Of a DNA stretch of 30,757 bases, positions 3,136 to 30,662 are shown piece by piece. Position numbers and translations under genes: made by a program. The notes beneath the pieces were generated by a model. That model was not told the origin of the DNA and made no database searches. It saw only the letters and a list, made by a program, of their open reading frames with translations. Origin of the DNA: Breznakia blatticola (GTDB lineage Bacteria; Bacillota_I; Bacilli_A; Erysipelotrichales; Erysipelotrichaceae); NCBI RefSeq assembly GCF_004365815.1, contig NZ_SODD01000029.1:1-30757 (forward strand), in the 5' to 3' direction. Position 1 is the first letter of the stretch. Every line of letters begins with the position of its first letter.

Positions 3136-3165
3136 AGTATAACACTATCTATATTTCTTTGCCAA
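3136..3165 (-). promoter_or_regulatory. Candidate ssrA promoter inside the 3' end of smpB
   Basis: On the minus strand, TTGGCA (3160-3165) is followed by an 18-nt spacer and TGtTATACT (-10 at 3136-3141). It ends 11 nt before the mature 5' GGGG. An 8-bp hairpin (3131-3151) overlaps it. Confidence 0.45.
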
Positions 3166-3591
3166 CTTTTGCATCATACGACTTGCATCACGATCTTTTT
3201 CCGTTTGACGCTTATCATATAAGTGTTTCCCCTTTGCTAAAGCAATTTCAAGTTTTGCTTTACCATGGTGAATATATAACCGTAGTGGCACAACGGTATA
3301 TCCTTGTAGTTTTACCTTTTGTTGGAGTTTCTTAATCTCATGCTTATGCAATAAGAGTTTTCTTTCTCTAGTCTCATCGTGATTGAAACGATTTCCATAT
3401 TCATATGGAGGAATGTGCATATTTTTAATATATGCTTCACCATCAATAAATGTGATGAAGCTTTCTTTCAATTGCACAGATCCTTTACGGATACTTTTAA
3501 TCTCTGTTCCATGCAAAACAAGGCCAGCTTCAAACGTGTCCTCAATGAAATATTCATGCTTTGCTTTTCGATTGACAGTGATTACTTGCAT
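3145..3591 (-). CDS. smpB: SsrA-binding protein SmpB
   Basis: The 148-aa ORF has the typical NRKAKHEY...GTEIKS...LLLHKHEI sequence. SD AGGAGG is present. It lies adjacent to tmRNA. Confidence 0.95.
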   Translation of the reverse strand: MQVITVNRKAKHEYFIEDTFEAGLVLHGTEIKSIRKGSVQLKESFITFIDGEAYIKNMHIPPYEYGNRFNHDETRERKLLLHKHEIKKLQQKVKLQGYTVVPLRLYIHHGKAKLEIALAKGKHLYDKRQTEKDRDASRMMQKLAKKYR

Positions 3592-4757: not shown

Positions 4758-6854
4758 TTATTTCTTAACAATCACAAAATCAATTTGCTTACGCATCTTG
4801 CTAGCATCTTCGACTTTAATTAAGACTTTTTGTCCCATTTTATAAATTATACCACTTGTTTCTCCAACTAATGCTTTTGCATTTTGATCATAGTGATAAT
4901 AATCATCTTCTAAACTTGTAATATGTACAAGTCCTTCCACTGTATTTTCCAGTTCCACGAATAATCCAAAACGAGTAACTGAAGATATCACACCATGGAA
5001 CTTTTTACCAATATAGCGTTCCATATATTCACATTTTTTCATATCATCTACATCACGTTCTGCTTCAATCGCATTACGTTCCATTTTCGATGTATGTTCA
5101 CTTGCTTCATCTAAGAATGCTTCGTCTTTTTCGATCTGTTTAAGATCAGTTGTCGCCTTAAAGTAGTAACGTTTCAGCATTCGGTGGACAAGTAAATCAG
5201 GATAGCGTCGAATTGGAGACGTAAAGTGTGTATACTCTTTCAATCCCAAACCAAAGTGTCCTAAATTGACCATATCGTAACGTGCTTTTTGCATACTACG
5301 AAGCATATACGTACTTAACACATCAAAATTTTCATTCCCTTTTGCTTGCACTAATAAATCTTGTAATTGCTTTGGATAGATATTTTGTGGATCAGCTTTT
5401 AATGGATATCCTAATGCACTACTTAAGTTGGCAAATTCACGAATCTTCTTAGAATCTGGATTTTCATGCACGCGATACATACTTGGCATTTGCATATGCT
5501 TTGTATGTGAGGCAATACATTCATTTGCGGCAATCATAAAGTCTTCAATCATACGTTCTGCATCACCGCGTTCACGTAATACGATATCTTTGACTCTTCC
5601 TTTTGCATCTACAAGGATTTTGCTTTCCTTCTTATCAAAATCGATTTCTCCAAGTTTTGCTTTACGCTTTTGTAGGATCTTAGATAATTCCAACCCTAAT
5701 GTAATCATCTCTTGTACATCTTTATACTTGCGTGTGACTTTAAGATCACCTGCAAGTATTTTATTTACATCAGTATACGTCATTCGATGACTACTTTTAA
5801 TTACACTCGGTACGATACGATAATCAACAACTTCACCTACTAGGTTGATTTCCATCACACAGCTCATCGTTAATCGATCCACTTTCTCTTGCAAACTACA
5901 TACCCCATTACTTAATAGCTGAGGCAACATTGGCACAACGCGATCTACAACATATACACTTGTTGAACGTTTATATGCTTCTTTATCGATAAGTGAACCT
6001 TCGGTTACATAATGCGATACATCAGCAATATGCACTTGTAGTTCATAATTACGACCTTTCTTTTTGATGTGGATTGCATCATCTAAATCCTTTGCATCTT
6101 CCCCATCAATGGTAATAATGCACGTATCTCTAAAATCCTCGCGTCCTTTTATTTGATCAACTTCCACTGTCTCAGGTATTTGTTGGGCTGCATCAAGCAC
6201 GGCTTTTGGGAAGACTGGCTCAATATCATGCTCAAGTAAAATCGATAGGATATCCACTCCTGGATCATACTTGTATCCAAGAATTTGCAGAATGCGAATG
6301 TACATCGTTTTCCCATACTTTTCAATGAATACTTGTACCTTTGTGTCATTGACCATTTTAAAGGCATCTTTATTCACAATCTTGAATTTTTGTTCAGGCA
6401 TTGGTGTATCTGGTAAAAACCACATCCGACCATCCTTTTTCTTAATGACACCTACTAACGTGTTCTTATTGCGTGAAATAACTTTGATAATTTCACATTC
6501 CACACGACCTTCATTGTCTTGATGAATTCGAGCTAACACCTCATCTCCATCCATAATATTCTTCACTTCATAACGGTTTGCATACACACTTGTGTCTTCA
6601 TTTTCCACAAACCCAAATCCTTTTGGATTCTTTCGTAATATACCTACAAAATATCCAAGTCGTTCCAAAGGAAAATAACGGTCTTTTTCATCAGTAATGA
6701 TGATGTATTCATTTTCCAGTGAATTCAATGCTTTTAGTAAAGCTGTAAAGTCTTCGCTACTCTCTACATGGAAAGCACGTTTAAAGTCCTCTACATTCAT
6801 CCCTTTATACTTTTGGCTTTGCACCGTATCCAGGATCATGTTCATATATTCCAT
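4758..6854 (-). CDS. rnr: Ribonuclease R (3'-5' exoribonuclease, RNB family with C-terminal S1 domain)
   Basis: The 698-aa ORF has cold-shock-like GFGFV, the RNB motifs DGEDAKDLDDAI and SPIRRYPDL, and an S1 domain GLFVEL. It sits in the conserved position upstream of smpB. Confidence 0.95.
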   Translation of the reverse strand: MEYMNMILDTVQSQKYKGMNVEDFKRAFHVESSEDFTALLKALNSLENEYIIITDEKDRYFPLERLGYFVGILRKNPKGFGFVENEDTSVYANRYEVKNIMDGDEVLARIHQDNEGRVECEIIKVISRNKNTLVGVIKKKDGRMWFLPDTPMPEQKFKIVNKDAFKMVNDTKVQVFIEKYGKTMYIRILQILGYKYDPGVDILSILLEHDIEPVFPKAVLDAAQQIPETVEVDQIKGREDFRDTCIITIDGEDAKDLDDAIHIKKKGRNYELQVHIADVSHYVTEGSLIDKEAYKRSTSVYVVDRVVPMLPQLLSNGVCSLQEKVDRLTMSCVMEINLVGEVVDYRIVPSVIKSSHRMTYTDVNKILAGDLKVTRKYKDVQEMITLGLELSKILQKRKAKLGEIDFDKKESKILVDAKGRVKDIVLRERGDAERMIEDFMIAANECIASHTKHMQMPSMYRVHENPDSKKIREFANLSSALGYPLKADPQNIYPKQLQDLLVQAKGNENFDVLSTYMLRSMQKARYDMVNLGHFGLGLKEYTHFTSPIRRYPDLLVHRMLKRYYFKATTDLKQIEKDEAFLDEASEHTSKMERNAIEAERDVDDMKKCEYMERYIGKKFHGVISSVTRFGLFVELENTVEGLVHITSLEDDYYHYDQNAKALVGETSGIIYKMGQKVLIKVEDASKMRKQIDFVIVKK

Positions 6855-6923: not shown

Positions 6924-7154
6924 CTAGAAGATTCTAATCGCAATAACTAACATAAAGAAAATAATACCCATTACAAGCGTAATTCTGGCTATTACCTTCT
7001 CAGGTCCACGTTCTTTCACATTTGCAAATAGGTTCAAACCATCTCCACCTGTAAAAGCACCACTAATTCCATCAGACTTTCCACTTTGTAATAACGAAAG
7101 GACGATAATAGCTCCAGAAACTATCATTAATAATACATCTAACATTTTATACAT
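6924..7154 (-). CDS. secG: Preprotein translocase subunit SecG
   Basis: The 76-aa two-TM ORF has the LLQSGKSDGISGAFTGG signature. SD AGGAGG is present. Confidence 0.9.
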   Translation of the reverse strand: MYKMLDVLLMIVSGAIIVLSLLQSGKSDGISGAFTGGDGLNLFANVKERGPEKVIARITLVMGIIFFMLVIAIRIF

Positions 7155-7204: not shown

Positions 7205-7300
7205 TAGGCAAGTTGTGAAACGAAATTCTAATATTTTAAAGTAATTCTACCTATCAACAAAAATAATAAATATTTACCCACCATTTCGCAAACTACTTTT

Positions 7301-7857
7301 TTATCCTTCAGGATTGTATAATATATCTTCGTATCCTTGTTCCACATACCATTCCAAGTAATCAAAGAAACCTTCATGACTCAATCCATATTCTCTATAA
7401 TATACGTTTACCCATGCCTATGCTTCTTTCATGCTTTCAATTACTTCTTCATCGCAATCAGTTTCTTCTGTTTCATAATAGTACATGCAATATGTAATAT
7501 CAATATCTTTACTATTCCTAACTTTTGCTTTTTTTCACGAGGTTTATCGAGACTATCAAATATTACAATTCTCTTATCGTCTTTGTACTCAAAACCAATT
7601 GTAATTGTTCTCTCTCCTACCCCTCGTGATAGTCTCCAATAATGTACCCCTAAATCGTTCTTTGAATCGAGAGTAACACTTATTGAAGTTGATCGAGTAT
7701 CAATTGAGTCAACTATGACTCCAGCCTTATCCATTTTCTCTTGGTACTTTTCTCCACTGAATGTTTGATTGCATCCCATCAGCATGCATATCATAACCAA
7801 TACACTCAAGATTCTTTTTTTCTCATATCCTGTTATCCCTCTTCTTACAGCACTCAC
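7301..7857 (-). pseudogene. Decayed copy of the array lipoprotein (at least 3 lesions)
   Basis: Poly(A) after the canonical ATG (7824-7826) is A7 (7815-7821), against A8 in the copy at 8972-8979. The mid-gene tract is A7 (7529-7535), one short of in-frame. An in-frame TAG sits at 7418-7420, where the other copies have GAA. Confidence 0.8.
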
Positions 7858-7876
7858 TTAAGTATATATCCACTTT

Positions 7877-8404
7877 TTATCCTTCAGGATTGTATAATAT
7901 ATCTTCATATCCTTGTTCTACATACCATTCCAAGTAATCAAAGAAACCTTCATGACTCAATCCATATTCTCTATAATATTGGTTTACCCTTGCTTCAGCT
8001 TCCTTCATACTTTCAATTACTTCTTCATCACAATCGGTTTCTTCTGTTTCATAATCATATGTACAATATGTAATATCAATATCTTTACTATTTCTAACTT
8101 TTGCATTTTTTTCACGAGGTTTATCAAGACTATCAAATATTACAATTCTCTTATCGTCTTTGTACTCAAAACCAATCGTAATTGTTCTTTCTCCTACCCC
8201 TTGTGATAATCGATGATATGCTACACCTAAATCAATCTTTGGATCGAGAGTAACACTTATTGAAGTTGATCGAGTATTAATCGAGTCAATTACGACTCCT
8301 GCCTTTTCCATTTTTTCTTGATACTTTTCTCCACTAAATGTTTGATTGCATCCCATCAGCATGCACATTACAACCAATATACTTACGATTCTTTTGTTAC
8401 TCAT
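7877..8404 (-). CDS. Lipoprotein, array paralogue (putative orphan immunity protein)
   Basis: The 175-aa ORF has a signal peptide with lipobox LMGC-NQT and SD GAGGGA. It is homologous to 9036-9563. The mid-gene A tract is interrupted (AAAAAAAT), which keeps the frame. Confidence 0.85.
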   Translation of the reverse strand: MSNKRIVSILVVMCMLMGCNQTFSGEKYQEKMEKAGVVIDSINTRSTSISVTLDPKIDLGVAYHRLSQGVGERTITIGFEYKDDKRIVIFDSLDKPREKNAKVRNSKDIDITYCTYDYETEETDCDEEVIESMKEAEARVNQYYREYGLSHEGFFDYLEWYVEQGYEDILYNPEG

Positions 8405-8455
8405 ACCCTGTTATCCCTCTTCTTACAACATTCACTTGAATGTTTATCCACTTTT

Positions 8456-8984
8456 TTATCCTTCAGGATTGTATTCAATATCTTCGTATCCTTGTTCTAC
8501 ATACCATTCCAAGTAATCAAAGAAACCTTCATGACTCAATCCATATTCTCTATAATATTGGTTTACCCTTGCTTCAGCTTCCTTCATGCTTTCAATTACT
8601 TCTTCATCACAATCAGTTTCTTCTGTTTCATAATAGTACATGCAATATGTCATATTTAAATCTTTGCTATTATAATACTTTGCTTTTTTTTTCATGAGGC
8701 TTATCCAGACTATCAAGTATTACAATTCTTTTATCGTCTTTATACTCAAAACCAATCGTAACTGTTCTCTCTCCTAACCCTCGAGATAATCGATGATATG
8801 CTACACCCAAACCGTTCTTTGAATCGAGTGTAATACTTATGGAAGTTGATCGCGTGTTAATCGCATCAATTACAACTCCAGCTTTATCCATTTTCTCTTG
8901 GTACTTTTCTCCACTGAATGTTTGATTACATCCCATCAGCATACACATTGCAATCAATACACTCAAGATTCTTTTTTTTCTCAT
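8456..8984 (-). pseudogene. Array lipoprotein split by a +1 frameshift in an A9 tract
   Basis: ORFs 8670-8984 (N-terminal half) and 8456-8716 (C-terminal half) overlap at the T9 run at 8684-8692. Removing one A gives a continuous ~175-aa paralogue (..HEKKAKYYNSKDLNMTYC..). Confidence 0.8.
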
Positions 8985-9035
8985 ATCCTGTTATCCCTCT
9001 TCTTACAACATTCACTTAAGTGTATATCCACTTTT

Positions 9036-9563
9036 TTATCCTTCAGGATTGTATTCTATATCTTCGTATCCTTGTTCCACATACCATTCTAAATAATCAA
9101 AGAAACCTTCATGACTCAATCCATATTCTCTATAATATTCGTTTACCCTTGCTTCTGTTTCCTTCATGCTTTTAATTACATCTTCATCACAATCAGTTTC
9201 TTCTGTTTCATAATCATATGTACAATATGTAATATCTATTTTCTTATTATTATATAATTCTGCTTCTTTTTTGCGATAATTATCAATACTATCAAATATC
9301 ACAATATTCTTATCTCTTTCATATATATAATCAATCGAGAATATTTTCTTCCCTATACCTCGCGATAATCGATTATATGATACTCCTAAATCGTTCTTTG
9401 GATCAATCACAATATTTATCGTGGTCGCTCTAGTATTAATTGAAGTAATTTCAATTCCAGCTTTATCCATTTTCTCTTGGTACTTTTCTCCACTAAATGT
9501 TTGATTGCATCCCATCAACATACATATCATAACCAATATACTTAAGATTCTTTTATTTCTCAT
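9036..9563 (-). CDS. Lipoprotein immediately downstream of the LXG gene (putative cognate immunity protein)
   Basis: The 175-aa ORF has lipobox LMGC-NQT. Its start lies 4 nt after the LXG stop, with SD AGGGGAG inside the last LXG codons. Its central ~90 aa diverge from the other three copies while both ends are conserved. Confidence 0.85.
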   Translation of the reverse strand: MRNKRILSILVMICMLMGCNQTFSGEKYQEKMDKAGIEITSINTRATTINIVIDPKNDLGVSYNRLSRGIGKKIFSIDYIYERDKNIVIFDSIDNYRKKEAELYNNKKIDITYCTYDYETEETDCDEDVIKSMKETEARVNEYYREYGLSHEGFFDYLEWYVEQGYEDIEYNPEG

Positions 9564-9567
9564 AGCA

Positions 9568-11301
9568 TTACTCCCCTACTTTCTTAATCATAAAATTTTC
9601 AACTCGTATTACAATCTCTTCAATTTTGTTCACATATTCTAAATCGTTATACAAATCTGCTACATCTACTTTAGGAAGTTTAATATATAATGTCCCTTTC
9701 TCATCTTCAGTATACTCACATCCAGACAAGGAATCGCACAATTTCTTTACTTCACCTTTTTTTTCCATTTTACCCACATTAATTCCATATGTTGCTATTG
9801 CATCTAACTTCTGATTATAATTATCTACTGCTATTCCTGTAGCTTCGCTAAGAATAAACTGTGTCTTATCTTTCACTGTTATACACTTCAGATCAAATTC
9901 ATCTACCAACCCTGAATTAAGTAATACATCTTCATCTGTAAATCTTGAAGTACTTGTATACTTTCCGTTTTTATACTTTTCTATTTGCTTTGAATCAATT
10001 CCATACACATTCATAATATCTGACAATGCAATTGCACCATCTACTATAGTTAGTACTCCTATCTGATCCACAAATCCGACACCATAACTCATTAACCCCA
10101 ATAGGGTATCTACTCGATCCATCATTCGTTTATTTTCTACATAATCGATTATCATTTCTTTTTCTCCTAATCGACCATGTGATTTTACTTCAAATTCCAC
10201 AGCATTGTTATTACCTGAATCTGCAAACGATACTCCAGTAAGTAATCCTTTTCCATCTATCTCGTCATATGAAAATAGCGCTTCTGTTCCTAATATACCT
10301 CTTAGATCAAATACATAATCTAATTGTATGCTCATTTCCAACATTGCTTCTACTTTTACAAATCGTTTCGCATATTTTTCCCATTCGAAATCTTTGTTGT
10401 TTACATTTAGGATTCCTTCTTCTCGTAGTTTATGTTCACTCATAAAAAGTACTAATTGAAATAGTGGTGAAGGTGAATACCCATTCTTCACCTGCGATTT
10501 TTCCGTGTCATATATTTGTGTTATGTCATATGGCACATTATATCCATACGTCATAATTAATGGCATTTCACTTTCATCAATGCGAATGATAATATCCGTG
10601 ATATTTTCGAATTCTTCACGACTAACTTCACCAATATCTTTCTTAAGTATTCTTTCGATATACTTCTTTCCTTCGTCAGTCAATTTACCATCTGCAGTAA
10701 TGTATTTAGATAAATATGCGTCTTTCGACTTTTCTACCCATGATAAATCAACATCTGTAAACTGCAGTTTTTTAGTATCAAAACTTACATCCTTTACTAC
10801 TTCGATTCCGCGCTTTAACTGTTGAATGTATATCTCTGTGTGATCATAATACTTATTTGCTTGTATGTCATAATCATAAAGATCATCTATCTTTCTTCTC
10901 AACACTCTTAAATTATATTGATATAGTTCTTCAATCCCTGCAGTAAACTGCATTGGCATACTTTCCAATTTTCTTAACATTCCGTTTATACTCATAATTA
11001 TCGTCTCAATTTCTTCCTCATTAAGATATTGATCTCCGAGCATACATGTGTATAGATTTTCAGTACTTCGATTTGATCGAATCAGTTCCTCACACAACCA
11101 AATATGAATCTGATATAAATTATAATACACACTTCGTATATAACGTTTATGAGCTGCAAATGCTTGTCCTTGTAATTCTTGATTCACACAAAAAGCATCA
11201 ATCTCTTTCAATACAGATTGACTAGTTTCTTTCATTTCTCTTAATGCACTATTTAAATCACTGAATTGGTTTTGTATCTCTCTAAGATGGAAGGACTTCA
11301 T
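9568..11301 (-). CDS. LXG-domain polymorphic toxin candidate (T7SSb substrate) with an unassigned C-terminal domain
   Basis: The helical N-terminal ~200 aa carry L43-Q-G45 in the context QELQGQAFAAHKRYI. SD GAGGAGG is present. It is preceded by two small overlapping helical ORFs and followed by lipoprotein genes. No signal peptide is visible. Confidence 0.75.
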   Translation of the reverse strand: MKSFHLREIQNQFSDLNSALREMKETSQSVLKEIDAFCVNQELQGQAFAAHKRYIRSVYYNLYQIHIWLCEELIRSNRSTENLYTCMLGDQYLNEEEIETIIMSINGMLRKLESMPMQFTAGIEELYQYNLRVLRRKIDDLYDYDIQANKYYDHTEIYIQQLKRGIEVVKDVSFDTKKLQFTDVDLSWVEKSKDAYLSKYITADGKLTDEGKKYIERILKKDIGEVSREEFENITDIIIRIDESEMPLIMTYGYNVPYDITQIYDTEKSQVKNGYSPSPLFQLVLFMSEHKLREEGILNVNNKDFEWEKYAKRFVKVEAMLEMSIQLDYVFDLRGILGTEALFSYDEIDGKGLLTGVSFADSGNNNAVEFEVKSHGRLGEKEMIIDYVENKRMMDRVDTLLGLMSYGVGFVDQIGVLTIVDGAIALSDIMNVYGIDSKQIEKYKNGKYTSTSRFTDEDVLLNSGLVDEFDLKCITVKDKTQFILSEATGIAVDNYNQKLDAIATYGINVGKMEKKGEVKKLCDSLSGCEYTEDEKGTLYIKLPKVDVADLYNDLEYVNKIEEIVIRVENFMIKKVGE

Positions 11302-11530
11302 TTTCTGTTTCCTCCTCTTTACTTATTTCTCTTTCTATCTCTTCTAACTCTTGACTTACTTTATTCATTGCCCTTTTATGAATATCCAAGCTTTCTTTTG
11401 ACATATTCCCACTGTCAGTCAAAGGAAATATCTCATAAAGATTTGCAAACAATTCATTGCTTTCCTTTAATAATTCTCTTAGTTCTTCAAGTTTCCCTTT
11501 TTGTATATACAACACATCTTTACTATTCAT
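11282..11530 (-). CDS. Small alpha-helical LXG-associated protein (Lap2/DUF3958-like)
   Basis: The 82-aa ORF is rich in charged residues and predicted helical. It shares an ATGA overlap with the upstream ORF and overlaps the LXG start by 20 nt, suggesting translational coupling. Confidence 0.55.
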   Translation of the reverse strand: MNSKDVLYIQKGKLEELRELLKESNELFANLYEIFPLTDSGNMSKESLDIHKRAMNKVSQELEEIEREISKEEETENEVLPS

Positions 11531-11790
11531 TTTCCAATTTCATCTCCAATCTTCGTATCAAGATTTTTAAAGCTTTTGGAAATAGTTTCTACTTTACCCA
11601 TATCTCTTTTAAAGTAATTATGAATACTTTTGTGTATAGTAAAAGTTTCATTTGCTTGAAATGAAATTCTTTCTTGTGTAGATAGAGTAGTAGCAGATGA
11701 ATATTTTACTTGATTGATAGTTGTTTTTACTTTAGCTTGTAGTTTATTAAGAAAACTACTTATATACTTATGATTAACTCGAACTGACAT
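11527..11790 (-). CDS. Small alpha-helical LXG-associated protein (Lap1/DUF3130-like)
   Basis: The 87-aa ORF is the first gene of the operon, with SD GAGGGGA. It contains YFKRD (YxxxD) and FKNLD (FxxxD) near the C-terminus. Confidence 0.55.
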   Translation of the reverse strand: MSVRVNHKYISSFLNKLQAKVKTTINQVKYSSATTLSTQERISFQANETFTIHKSIHNYFKRDMGKVETISKSFKNLDTKIGDEIGK

Positions 11791-11820: not shown

Positions 11821-11848
11821 ATTATAACAGTTGAGATTTTTTCGTCAA
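11821..11848 (-). promoter_or_regulatory. Strong sigma-A-type promoter of the LXG operon
   Basis: On the minus strand, TTGACG (11843-11848) is followed by a 16-nt spacer and the extended -10 TGtTATAAT (-10 at 11821-11826), about 25 nt upstream of the first SD. Confidence 0.6.
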
Positions 11849-12285: not shown

Positions 12286-13662
<1,377 letters not shown>

Positions 13663-28829: not shown

Positions 28830-30662
28830 CCTAAACTTCCCATAAAAAGATAACTAAACAGCAAAAAGAAGCATATTACTCCCCAACTTTGTTAAGTCGT
28901 TGTGTATATGCTTCTACTTCTTTATTATCTATTCCAAATGGCTTTAGTATTTCCTTTTGCTTTTTCGTGATTCCATATCGTCTAATATATTCACTATTTA
29001 TATTTCGGCTGACTTCTACTTTGTTCATTTCATTTATTATCGCTGGAATCGTATATTGTTTTCTATTTTTCTTACGTAGACCTTTTGTCTTCACATAGAT
29101 ATCATTTCTTACAATATTCGCTAGAAACGTCACAAACGTTTTCGCCTCAAGCGATACATCATCATGTACTCCAAATCCGTCATATCCTAAATTACTTTTC
29201 AAACTTCTAAATAGTTTTTCCACTGTATCTCTATCTCGATAAATTGTAAGAGCTTCTTCTGCACTCATTTCCTTTGAAGTGACCAAAACAAAATATCCCA
29301 TTGCATCTATTTCTTTTTGTATTTTATCTGTCCTTTTCGTATATTTCTTTAAATATCCATTATCGTCATATGTAATTTTAAAACCCTTTTCAAATCGCTT
29401 TAAATCTTCTCTTTTGCTTAACATCGTTTTAGATGTTTTTTCTTCTAATTCTTTTTCCATTTTTTGATATACATTTAACAATCCCAACCTCTGATTATTT
29501 GCTTTCTCTCCATCATAATAAACATGCACATAATATTGATCTTCACTGTTTTTATATAGTTGCTTTTTTACTGTTTTCCCATATACACCATACGGTTCTA
29601 TATAGTATGCTACTTTATCTGCTATTTTTAAACGATTCTCCTCGATTGCTTCTTTTATTGCTGTTTGATTTGTCTTCACCATCATGACCAAATCATACCC
29701 TTTTCTAGCTATATAACCTAGGTTGTCACTACTAAAATATCCTCTATCAAGAATTAATCCAATCCCTTCATATCCATATCCAATTGCTTTATCTACCATA
29801 TATTTTAATTGACTATTATCATTAATACTTCCAGGATACTGTTCATAGTACAATGGTGTCCCTGTTTCTTGGTCAATTGCATAACTTAAATTCACTATTG
29901 GTACTTCATCATCTGCTTTTGCATGTCCAAACTCCGCAAGTTCGATACCTTCACTACATGTATTCATATTTGTGCTATCGTAGCTTATATATACAGTTTT
30001 CGCATGATTCATTTGGTTCCATGAATGTAGAAAAAATTCTCTATCTTTTAAAGAAATTCTTTCTTTAAACATTCTGCCAATTGTCGTATCACTATAGATC
30101 TTATCACTATATATTGGCACTCTACGCATTAGTGTTGGAAAGTATTGCATAACAGTAGATTCATTAATAATCATATATTGAATGAGATCCTTTATTAAAG
30201 GTGAATCATCCTCAAAGATTGAATCAATCAAATCACCAACTTCCAAACTTTGAAGTACCTTATCAATAATCATTGTATTACCGATAGACAACGTGTCTGA
30301 ATGTTGCAAGGGTTCCAACAATTCAAACCATTCAGGAAAAAACTTACGAGCATTATCATTGGGAATCATAAGATTATCATCAATAGCTTTACCAATCGAT
30401 ACACGTTTATTTTGGTTGTGTTTTTTCTCTTTGATATAAACTTTTTTAGCAGTGATATACACATATCCATTTGGATAAACAATAGAACCTTCAGGTCTTT
30501 CAACCTTGATATTATCATAGAACATAGCGACCTCTTTTTTTAGTTATCTTTATAACTAAATTATATCATAAGTCAAGCAATAAAAAAAGCGGAAAAACAT
30601 GAATATTCTCACATTTTTCGCGTTTTATTTATTATTAGTTATCTTTCTTTGGGAAGTTTAGG
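28830..30662 (-). mobile_element. Complete IS4-superfamily insertion sequence (IS1634-family-like), 1833 bp
   Basis: The terminal inverted repeats at 28830-28856 and 30636-30662 match at 25 of 27 positions (CCTAAACTTCCCA...GATAACTA). It has a single 549-aa DDE transposase ORF and is flanked by the 6-bp direct repeat TTGGAC. Confidence 0.85.
28876..30525 (-). CDS. DDE transposase, IS4 superfamily (IS1634-like)
   Basis: The ORF is 549 aa. LILDRGYFS provides the DDE Asp context, and YRDRDTVEKLFRSLK fits the IS4 Y-x2-R-x3-E-x6-K signature. SD AGAGGT is present. Confidence 0.85.
   Translation of the reverse strand: MFYDNIKVERPEGSIVYPNGYVYITAKKVYIKEKKHNQNKRVSIGKAIDDNLMIPNDNARKFFPEWFELLEPLQHSDTLSIGNTMIIDKVLQSLEVGDLIDSIFEDDSPLIKDLIQYMIINESTVMQYFPTLMRRVPIYSDKIYSDTTIGRMFKERISLKDREFFLHSWNQMNHAKTVYISYDSTNMNTCSEGIELAEFGHAKADDEVPIVNLSYAIDQETGTPLYYEQYPGSINDNSQLKYMVDKAIGYGYEGIGLILDRGYFSSDNLGYIARKGYDLVMMVKTNQTAIKEAIEENRLKIADKVAYYIEPYGVYGKTVKKQLYKNSEDQYYVHVYYDGEKANNQRLGLLNVYQKMEKELEEKTSKTMLSKREDLKRFEKGFKITYDDNGYLKKYTKRTDKIQKEIDAMGYFVLVTSKEMSAEEALTIYRDRDTVEKLFRSLKSNLGYDGFGVHDDVSLEAKTFVTFLANIVRNDIYVKTKGLRKKNRKQYTIPAIINEMNKVEVSRNINSEYIRRYGITKKQKEILKPFGIDNKEVEAYTQRLNKVGE

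Follow-up and report, generated by a model that had tools for sequence, protein, structure and literature searches.

A putative LXG toxin of Breznakia blatticola with predicted outward-facing lipoprotein partners, a candidate for an envelope-acting payload family

The window, by which we mean the whole 30,757-bp stretch of DNA analysed here, is an entire contig of Breznakia blatticola (Erysipelotrichaceae), and its minus strand carries a cassette in which the gene for a 577-amino-acid (aa) putative LXG toxin is preceded by two small genes and followed by tandem genes for predicted lipoproteins. The explanation that accounts best for this cassette, and which we consider on balance the probable one by analogy with known systems, combines an exported LXG payload, outward-facing immunity proteins, and an envelope-acting soluble enzyme of a new family. 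The family-specific payload (aa ~192-577, 386 aa) would be exported by a type VIIb secretion system (T7SSb) together with two small helical partners of the Lap type, and the anchored, outward-facing proteins encoded downstream would be its immunity proteins, which are lipoproteins in Breznakia and proteins with an N-terminal transmembrane (TM) helix in the other clade of the family. Since the toxin would be neutralised on the outer side of the membrane, its action is most likely to be there too, with peptidoglycan, a lipid-linked precursor of the wall or the head groups of membrane lipids as possible targets. It could be a soluble enzyme using a chemistry without His or Cys, rather than a pore, and specificity would lie in a patch of the toxin (aa 507-541) and, on the side of the lipoprotein, in its variable N-terminal half (aa ~35-115). 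Secretion, toxicity, immunity function, site of action and enzymatic nature are what we infer here from the sequences.

The original prediction had reasoned from exported immunity to extracytoplasmic action, and this reasoning has precedents in TelC/TipC (PMC6193138), in TslA/TilA (PMC10730906) and in the Lipocone toxins; for these last, the argument from immunity-protein topology to site of action has been made explicitly (PMC12419801, section 30). By the same analogy, the evidence from this locus leans towards a toxin that acts outside the membrane. The earlier claim of an attack on the envelope from outside is strengthened by anchored partners in both clades and by the linked synonymous divergence (dS) of the toxin tip, and is still a matter of inference.

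To our knowledge, almost all characterised T7SSb/LXG toxins act within the target cell, and very few do so in the wall zone; these, namely TelC and the TslA-type lipases, have revealed envelope vulnerabilities of Gram-positive bacteria. Unassigned LXG C-terminal domains are common and outward-acting payloads are few. The topology of immunity proteins can help to sort unassigned polymorphic-toxin domains. A payload without known fold, together with two independent kinds of anchored immunity, would be a candidate source of an envelope-targeting activity, and of an inhibitor family, that are both new. We suggest only tentatively, and with more doubt than confidence, that aa 192-577 found a new fold or family of T7SS-exported, outside-acting Gram-positive envelope toxins with a His/Cys-free chemistry and a new lipoprotein immunity family; if so, the T7SSb toxins known to act extracellularly, TelC and the TslA-type lipases among them, would gain a kind that is only their third or fourth.

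A probable LXG cassette with predicted anchored partners in two clades

The N-terminal region of the window toxin (aa 8-191) is homologous (E 1e-17) to P0002, an LXG protein with an unrelated payload that clears the Pfam LXG cutoff with 29.6 bits. The LxG motif L43-Q-G45 of the window toxin lines up with LRG in P0002 and with LVG in the distant relative P0010, and PHROG families 24213 and 22940 match aa 5-165. The window toxin can be taken as an LXG protein by transitive homology, not by a curated cutoff. Because similarity to P0002 ends at aa 191, the payload is placed from about aa 192 onwards, which moves the start of the unassigned region well upstream of the earlier estimate of aa ~330.

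The small genes upstream of the toxin gene resemble those of known LXG loci. In the distant clade, the product of the first upstream gene matches the Pfam family DUF3130 (Lap1) in locus L003 with 26.6 bits (cutoff 25) and in locus L002 with 23.1 bits, and in an alignment with these two the 87-aa protein of the window shares an invariant F74 and D78 of the FxxxD motif. The second upstream genes of L002 and L003 give weak matches to DUF3958 (Lap2; E 0.02-0.09), and the 82-aa protein of the window aligns poorly. The FxxxD motif of Lap1 is needed for the export of LXG toxins, and proteins of the Lap1/Lap2 type target LXG toxins to T7SSb (PMC9600955). The architecture of an LXG toxin is also present, with a family-specific region from aa 192, a partner gene 4 nucleotides (nt) further on, and a hypervariable tip that diverges together with the partner genes, and it is likely that the locus is a real LXG polymorphic toxin-immunity cassette.

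Downstream of the toxin gene, four tandem 579-bp units (7298-9563) each correspond to a 175-aa lipoprotein, two of them intact and two frameshifted, with ~50 nt between units; the array was found by a repeat search, its period lying above the TRF maximum of 500. The open reading frame (ORF) at 9036-9563 starts with MRNKRILSILVMICMLMGC, which fits the PROSITE PS51257-type lipobox rule with a basic n-region and a hydrophobic core, and every copy and orthologue keeps the lipobox Cys; the predicted mature protein corresponds to 9036-9509. The lipoproteins of the window are recovered with 100% identity under the names EDD63_129xx. The partners in Breznakia are predicted to be lipoproteins, in agreement with the original prediction, and the C-x10-C pair to which it drew attention (YCTYDYETEETDC) recurs in every intact copy.

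In the distant clade the arrangement is the same with a different kind of protein. At L002, the locus of P0010, two partner genes follow in tandem, the first of them overlapped by the toxin gene, and each of their products (163 and 164 aa) combines a very strong TM helix at the N-terminus (KD19 hydrophobicity 2.83, Hessa-scale sum -2.7 kcal/mol) with a remainder that is soluble. Between the Breznakia lipoproteins and these anchored partners, homology was undetected (BLASTP E of at least 4; hhalign probability 0.6%). Since an anchored partner occurs in both clades without homology between the partners, a membrane-anchored, outward-facing partner is predicted to have been kept across toxins of 25% identity even though the partner sequence has changed beyond recognition, and this conserved predicted topology is the strongest new support for a toxin that would act outside.

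Toxin and partner genes also appear to vary in a linked way. The comparison covers the three Breznakia toxins (window, P0001 and L001) and their three toxin/partner pairs, a sample too small for a statistical test of co-variation. Almost half of the variable columns (26 of 53) sit in aa 507-541, a patch that also holds the clade-specific C522-x5-C528, and identity among the Breznakia members is 74-84% for the lipoproteins versus 90-94% for the toxins. Compared between the window and L001, the toxin gene has a dS of 0.05-0.10 over aa 1-500 and of 0.49 over aa 501-545, and that of the lipoprotein genes is 0.32-0.50, level with the toxin tip, while the ratio of nonsynonymous to synonymous divergence (dN/dS) stays below 1 (0.26-0.41). 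The jump in dS suggests recombination, with a breakpoint near toxin aa 500, in which toxin tip and immunity gene moved as a single unit, rather than positive selection; with equal dS in aa 501-545 and in the lipoprotein genes, the two appear to move together. The patch at aa 507-541 is probably the immunity-specificity surface of the toxin. Furthermore, the paralogous toxin P0001, on a 144,587-bp contig of B. blatticola, has its own lipoprotein (P0005, 79% identity), which suggests that one strain carries two diverged toxin/immunity alleles, the window pair and P0001/P0005.

Within the lipoproteins, most of the variation falls at aa ~35-115, while the C-terminal third hardly varies across copies and species. 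The near-invariant C-terminus (aa ~120-175, window 9036-9200) reads …YYREYGLSHEGFFDYLEWYVEQGYEDIEYNPEG, and such conservation, unexpected if the protein served immunity alone, hints that a second contact or function has been conserved as well. One source labels a lipoprotein fragment, P0008, as 'Beta-lactamase inhibitor (BLIP)', a label unconfirmed here: the Pfam families BLIP and SmpA_OmlA (BamE) matched none of the lipoprotein copies at E up to 10. We take BLIP to be comparable with the BamE fold class.

Copies 2 and 4 of the array are broken at the same homopolymer of 8-10 A (+1 A and -1 A); decay of orphan immunity genes, a tract prone to slippage or sequencing errors at the homopolymer could each account for this. 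Conserved cysteine pairs occur in the toxin (C522-x5-C528, 9736-9717), in the lipoproteins (C-x10-C) and in the L002 partner encoded at L002:4826-5314 (C32 and C162). Such pairs are uncommon in exported Firmicute proteins, and those of the toxin patch and of both kinds of partner may form extracytoplasmic disulfides.

The payload and its candidate mode of action

To find relatives of the toxin, 5.8 billion proteins were searched twice by word index, and 1.8 billion representatives were scanned in full with HMMER. Beyond the copy in the window, the family found in these protein searches consists of P0001, the paralogue in the same B. blatticola genome (94% identity), of an orthologue from another Breznakia (L001:7678-9417, ~90% identity), and of two metagenomic proteins, P0010 and P0011, with 25-28% identity, which are alignable over the whole length (P0010, at 25%, is the toxin of L002). 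Genome, metagenome, plasmid and phage collections, the last two searched by tblastn, yielded no further payload relatives or loci. Nothing past aa ~190 found a match in Pfam, NCBIfam, PHROGs or PDB sequences, for the last of which both single-sequence and profile searches were run. The payload is a true orphan, belonging to a very small family without a detectable relative of known function.

The original prediction had seen no recognisable catalytic signature in aa 330-577, and its reading by eye holds for the longer payload as well: regular expressions for HExxH, GxSxG, P-loop, HNH-like, HKD and GDSL motifs, and for a glycine zipper, were negative over aa 330-577 and over aa 190-577. Across aa 190-577, 90 positions are invariant between the two clades, with zero His and zero Cys among them, in an alignment of four sequences in which invariance is weakly informative. 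Acidic residues among the invariant positions include E289, D332, E380, D395, D436, D467, D500, D546 and D549. Residues can be related to classes of enzymes, and the absence of an invariant His or Cys, if the family is enzymatic, argues against Ser-His-Asp lipases and HNH/His-Me nucleases, against papain, NlpC-P60 and CHAP enzymes, zinc amidases, peptidases and deaminases, and against phosphatases of the colicin-M type and of the canonical Lipocone type.

Two enzymatic assignments suggested by short motifs were considered and rejected. S288-E-H-K291 (10429-10440), which is SExK in both clades, could be read as the SxxK motif of penicillin-binding proteins or beta-lactamases, but the Ser lies in the middle of a helix in the AlphaFold2 model, SxN/KTG is unconserved, and Pfam matches to both groups are absent. 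A lytic transglycosylase, suggested by 'GLM' and 'YN', was likewise set aside, since an SLT match is absent even at E 10 and the spacing of the motifs is wrong.

The AlphaFold2 model of aa 190-577, built on the 4-sequence alignment, has a mean predicted local distance difference test (pLDDT) score of 53. A helical part (aa ~190-326) is moderately confident, aa 326-463, with the hydrophobic stretch included, is below 35 and unusable, and a small alpha/beta C-terminal part (aa ~470-572, pLDDT 67-84) is again moderately confident. The lipoprotein model (pLDDT 46) consists of one helix followed by about four strands, at low confidence. With Foldseek, the payload model had no match in PDB or BFVD at E <= 0.001, and the lipoprotein model matched nothing. 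A confident remote match to a cytoplasmic-acting toxin fold would have spoken against an action outside; the profile searches and Foldseek yielded no such fold, with a poor model as the query of the latter.

Among known systems, the closest in overall design is TelC/TipC of Streptococcus intermedius, whose toxin is a lipid II phosphatase. The likeness comprises the N-terminal LXG domain with upstream Lap1 (DUF3130, FxxxD) and, here in the form of a Lap2-like protein, Lap2 (PMC6193138, PMC9600955), a payload of ~350-390 aa that begins near residue 200, the toxin domain of TelC being residues 202-552 (PMC6193138), a membrane-anchored immunity protein (putative here) with its inhibitory domain outside, and extra paralogous immunity copies downstream (PMC6193138, PMC9600955). 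The N-terminal TM anchor predicted for the L002 partners corresponds to the topology shown experimentally for TipC (PMC6193138). Nevertheless, the TelC motifs DFxHQS and DDYKADLD are absent from this family, which has no invariant His, the Breznakia immunity proteins are predicted lipoproteins unlike TipC, and TipC chains were not among the PDB sequence matches. A local resemblance between DLYNDLEYVN and the TelC motif DDYKADLDAVN was set aside, as D552 and L553 are unconserved in the other clade.

The phospholipase TslA of the Staphylococcus aureus T7SS, with its immunity protein TilA, offers a second comparison, in that extracellular lipoprotein immunity genes lie in variable tandem arrays beside the toxin gene (PMC10730906). 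The order of domains is reversed there, with an N-terminal lipase and an LXG-like C-terminus, whereas LXG is N-terminal here; moreover, the payload here lacks both GxSxG and an invariant His for a Ser-Asp-His triad, and the lipoproteins match neither DUF576 nor other Pfam families. The Lipocone toxins that target lipid head groups have rapidly evolving, membrane-anchored BamE-like immunity proteins (PMC12419801), and the likeness again lies in immunity proteins, either lipoproteins or TM proteins, that evolve fast (Burroughs and Aravind 2025, PMC12419801). In this family, however, the canonical Lipocone His is unconserved, and sequences of the payload family are absent from the supplementary lists of the Lipocone paper (PMC12419801).

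Within this comparison an envelope-acting enzyme is favoured over a pore, because TelC and TslA, both served by single-anchor immunity proteins with a soluble domain, are enzymes, and because the zipper, the DUF4176 chaperone and the DUF5085 or multi-spanning immunity proteins are features not present here. Such a reading has to be weighed against three other explanations, each of which we regard as considerably less probable.

The first of these is a cytoplasm-acting toxin of unrecognised fold, whose surface partners would block binding or entry, or would not be immunity proteins. Characterised LXG toxins are mostly nucleases, NADases or similar, the best-modelled part of the payload (the alpha/beta part at aa ~470-572) has the size typical of such toxins, and the payload is without an assigned fold, all of which speaks for this explanation. 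It is nevertheless unlikely, since the producer would require cytoplasmic self-protection before export and none is encoded: there is no candidate ORF for a cytoplasmic immunity protein between or after the toxin and partner genes, where the gaps are 4 nt and ~50 nt, and an exported partner follows directly downstream in both clades. Motifs of nucleases, ADP-ribosyltransferases, NADases and deaminases are absent as well, and the lack of an invariant His or Cys points the same way.

A membrane-permeabilising toxin is slightly less likely still. The segment centred on LGLM[ST]Y would insert into and depolarise the target membrane, as do the LXG toxins TelE, EsxX and TspA, and the partner would intercept it at the membrane surface. 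The original prediction had proposed, as a speculation, that a Gly-rich hydrophobic stretch could be membrane-active. The stretch, TLLGLMSYGVGFVDQIGVLTIVDGAIAL, is indeed present at aa 399-426, at nt 10024-10107 rather than from ~10015, and is the most hydrophobic segment of the protein and of the Breznakia toxins generally (KD19 1.68); LGLM[ST]Y is invariant in both clades, aa 326-463 has no confident globular fold in the AlphaFold2 model, the partners are predicted to be membrane-anchored, and the likeness to TelE, EsxX and TspA extends to LXG delivery and to a Gly-containing hydrophobic segment toward the C-terminus. The membrane-active role is, however, not upheld. As many as 756 of 2000 composition-preserving shuffles (38%) equalled or exceeded the KD19 value, and the energy summed over the stretch, which contains two Asp, is +6.7 kcal/mol on the Hessa scale; the hydrophobicity is therefore not beyond chance. 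The equivalent region of the distant clade retains LGLM[ST]Y but has a 6-residue deletion and reaches a KD19 of just 1.09, below threshold. TelE and EsxX carry a glycine zipper, a DUF4176 chaperone, and DUF5085 and/or multi-spanning immunity proteins (bioRxiv 10.64898/2026.03.12.711312), whereas here GxxxGxxxG and TM-grade hydrophobicity are lacking, the partners are single-anchor proteins with a soluble domain, and among the cassette proteins of both clades no Pfam match to a DUF4176 chaperone, to DUF5085 or to a polytopic-membrane immunity protein was found.

The least probable alternative is that the protein is not an antibacterial toxin at all and would be a secreted LXG protein for wall remodelling, adhesion, nutrient capture or host interaction, with the lipoproteins as receptors or co-factors; the rarity of the family and the near-invariant C-terminal third of the lipoprotein, which would fit a conserved second function, speak for it, but the layout is that of a polymorphic toxin-immunity cassette (Lap1-like and Lap2-like proteins, LXG protein, hypervariable tip, multiple insertion sites), the partner is tightly coupled, tandemly amplified and fast-evolving with decaying copies, as in immunity arrays, and the same genome holds two diverged toxin/partner pairs.

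Several observations weigh against the envelope-acting LXG enzyme that we prefer. In a direct comparison with Pfam LXG (PF04740), the window toxin reaches E 0.0022 and 18.4 bits, under the gathering cutoff of 26.5, and a Pfam search of the 87-aa and 82-aa Lap-like proteins of the window gave no match. T7SS core genes (EssC etc.) were found neither within the window nor in loci L001-L003. A profile of prok-TelC, the one Lipocone family covered among others such as CapCone, Min-Wnt and prok-SAA, was made from the cores of 26 published sequences (PMC12419801, supplement 19); it scored at most 0.7 bits against all family members in hmmsearch with filters off and gave an hhalign probability of 0.2%, and on these scores the family was rejected as TelC. 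The poor AlphaFold2 models of payload and lipoprotein could leave room for a known cytoplasmic-toxin fold, the missing invariant His and Cys come from only four sequences, and the enzymatic reading would draw on analogy and on absent features.

Cassette layout and genomic setting

On the minus strand, the order of the cassette is a promoter-like site, the 87-aa gene, the 82-aa gene, the toxin gene and the four lipoprotein units (Table 1). Neighbouring genes overlap or lie 4 nt apart, the 82-aa gene overlapping the genes on both sides. The promoter-like site lies between a terminator-like hairpin of eno (12269-12244) and the first small gene, ~30 nt upstream of the latter.

Table 1. Positions of the cassette elements and of nearby housekeeping genes in the window
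Feature	Position	Strand	Basis or remark
Promoter-like site	11821-11848	-	TTGACG, 16-nt spacer, TG-TATAAT; 11/12 positions fit; consensus match alone
Lap1-like small helical protein, 87 aa, FxxxD motif FKNLD (aa 74-78)	11527-11790	-	Alignment with L002 and L003 equivalents
Lap2-like small helical protein, 82 aa	11282-11530	-	Assigned from position and size
Putative toxin ORF, 577 aa	9568-11301	-	ORF call
LXG domain, aa 1-191, LxG motif L43-Q-G45	10729-11301	-	Homology to P0002
Payload, aa 192-577 and stop codon	9568-10728	-	Kept over full length in family
Gly-rich hydrophobic stretch, aa 399-426	10024-10107	-	LGLM[ST]Y (aa 401-406) common to both clades, remainder not
Hypervariable patch, aa 507-541, with C522-x5-C528	9679-9783	-	Variable columns and dS
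Lipoprotein copy 1, 175 aa, putative cognate immunity protein	9036-9563	-	Begins 4 nt past toxin stop
Lipoprotein copy 2, broken into two ORFs	8456-8984	-	+1 A in poly-A tract
Lipoprotein copy 3, 175 aa, intact	7877-8404	-	74% identity to copy 1
Lipoprotein copy 4, degraded	7298-7857	-	Indel after ATG, -1 A in poly-A tract, in-frame TAG
tmRNA, tag peptide GKNKLSSFFGANQSVAFAA	2744-3124	-	Housekeeping block
SmpB	3145-3591	-	Housekeeping block
RNase R-like gene	4758-6854	-	Housekeeping block
SecG	6924-7154	-	Housekeeping block
Enolase	12286-13599	-	Housekeeping block

On one side of the cassette lie the enolase gene and its terminator-like hairpin, on the other the housekeeping block secG-rnr-smpB-tmRNA, and the GC content of the cassette (29-33% vs ~36%) is somewhat lower. 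The same cassette occurs in two other settings, in another Breznakia genome (L001) and on a metagenome contig (L002). Since these three contexts are unrelated to one another, the cassette behaves as a mobile island.

Two further genes of the contig were recorded. About 6 kb past the end of the cassette, across the housekeeping genes, a VanZ-like protein is encoded at 239-895 on the minus strand (PF04892, E 1e-09); the VanZ-like family has been grouped with TelC inside the Lipocone superfamily (PMC12419801), and this copy is probably unrelated to the cassette. At the contig end, a DDE transposase gene (PF01609) lies at 28876-30525 on the minus strand and may explain the assembly break there.

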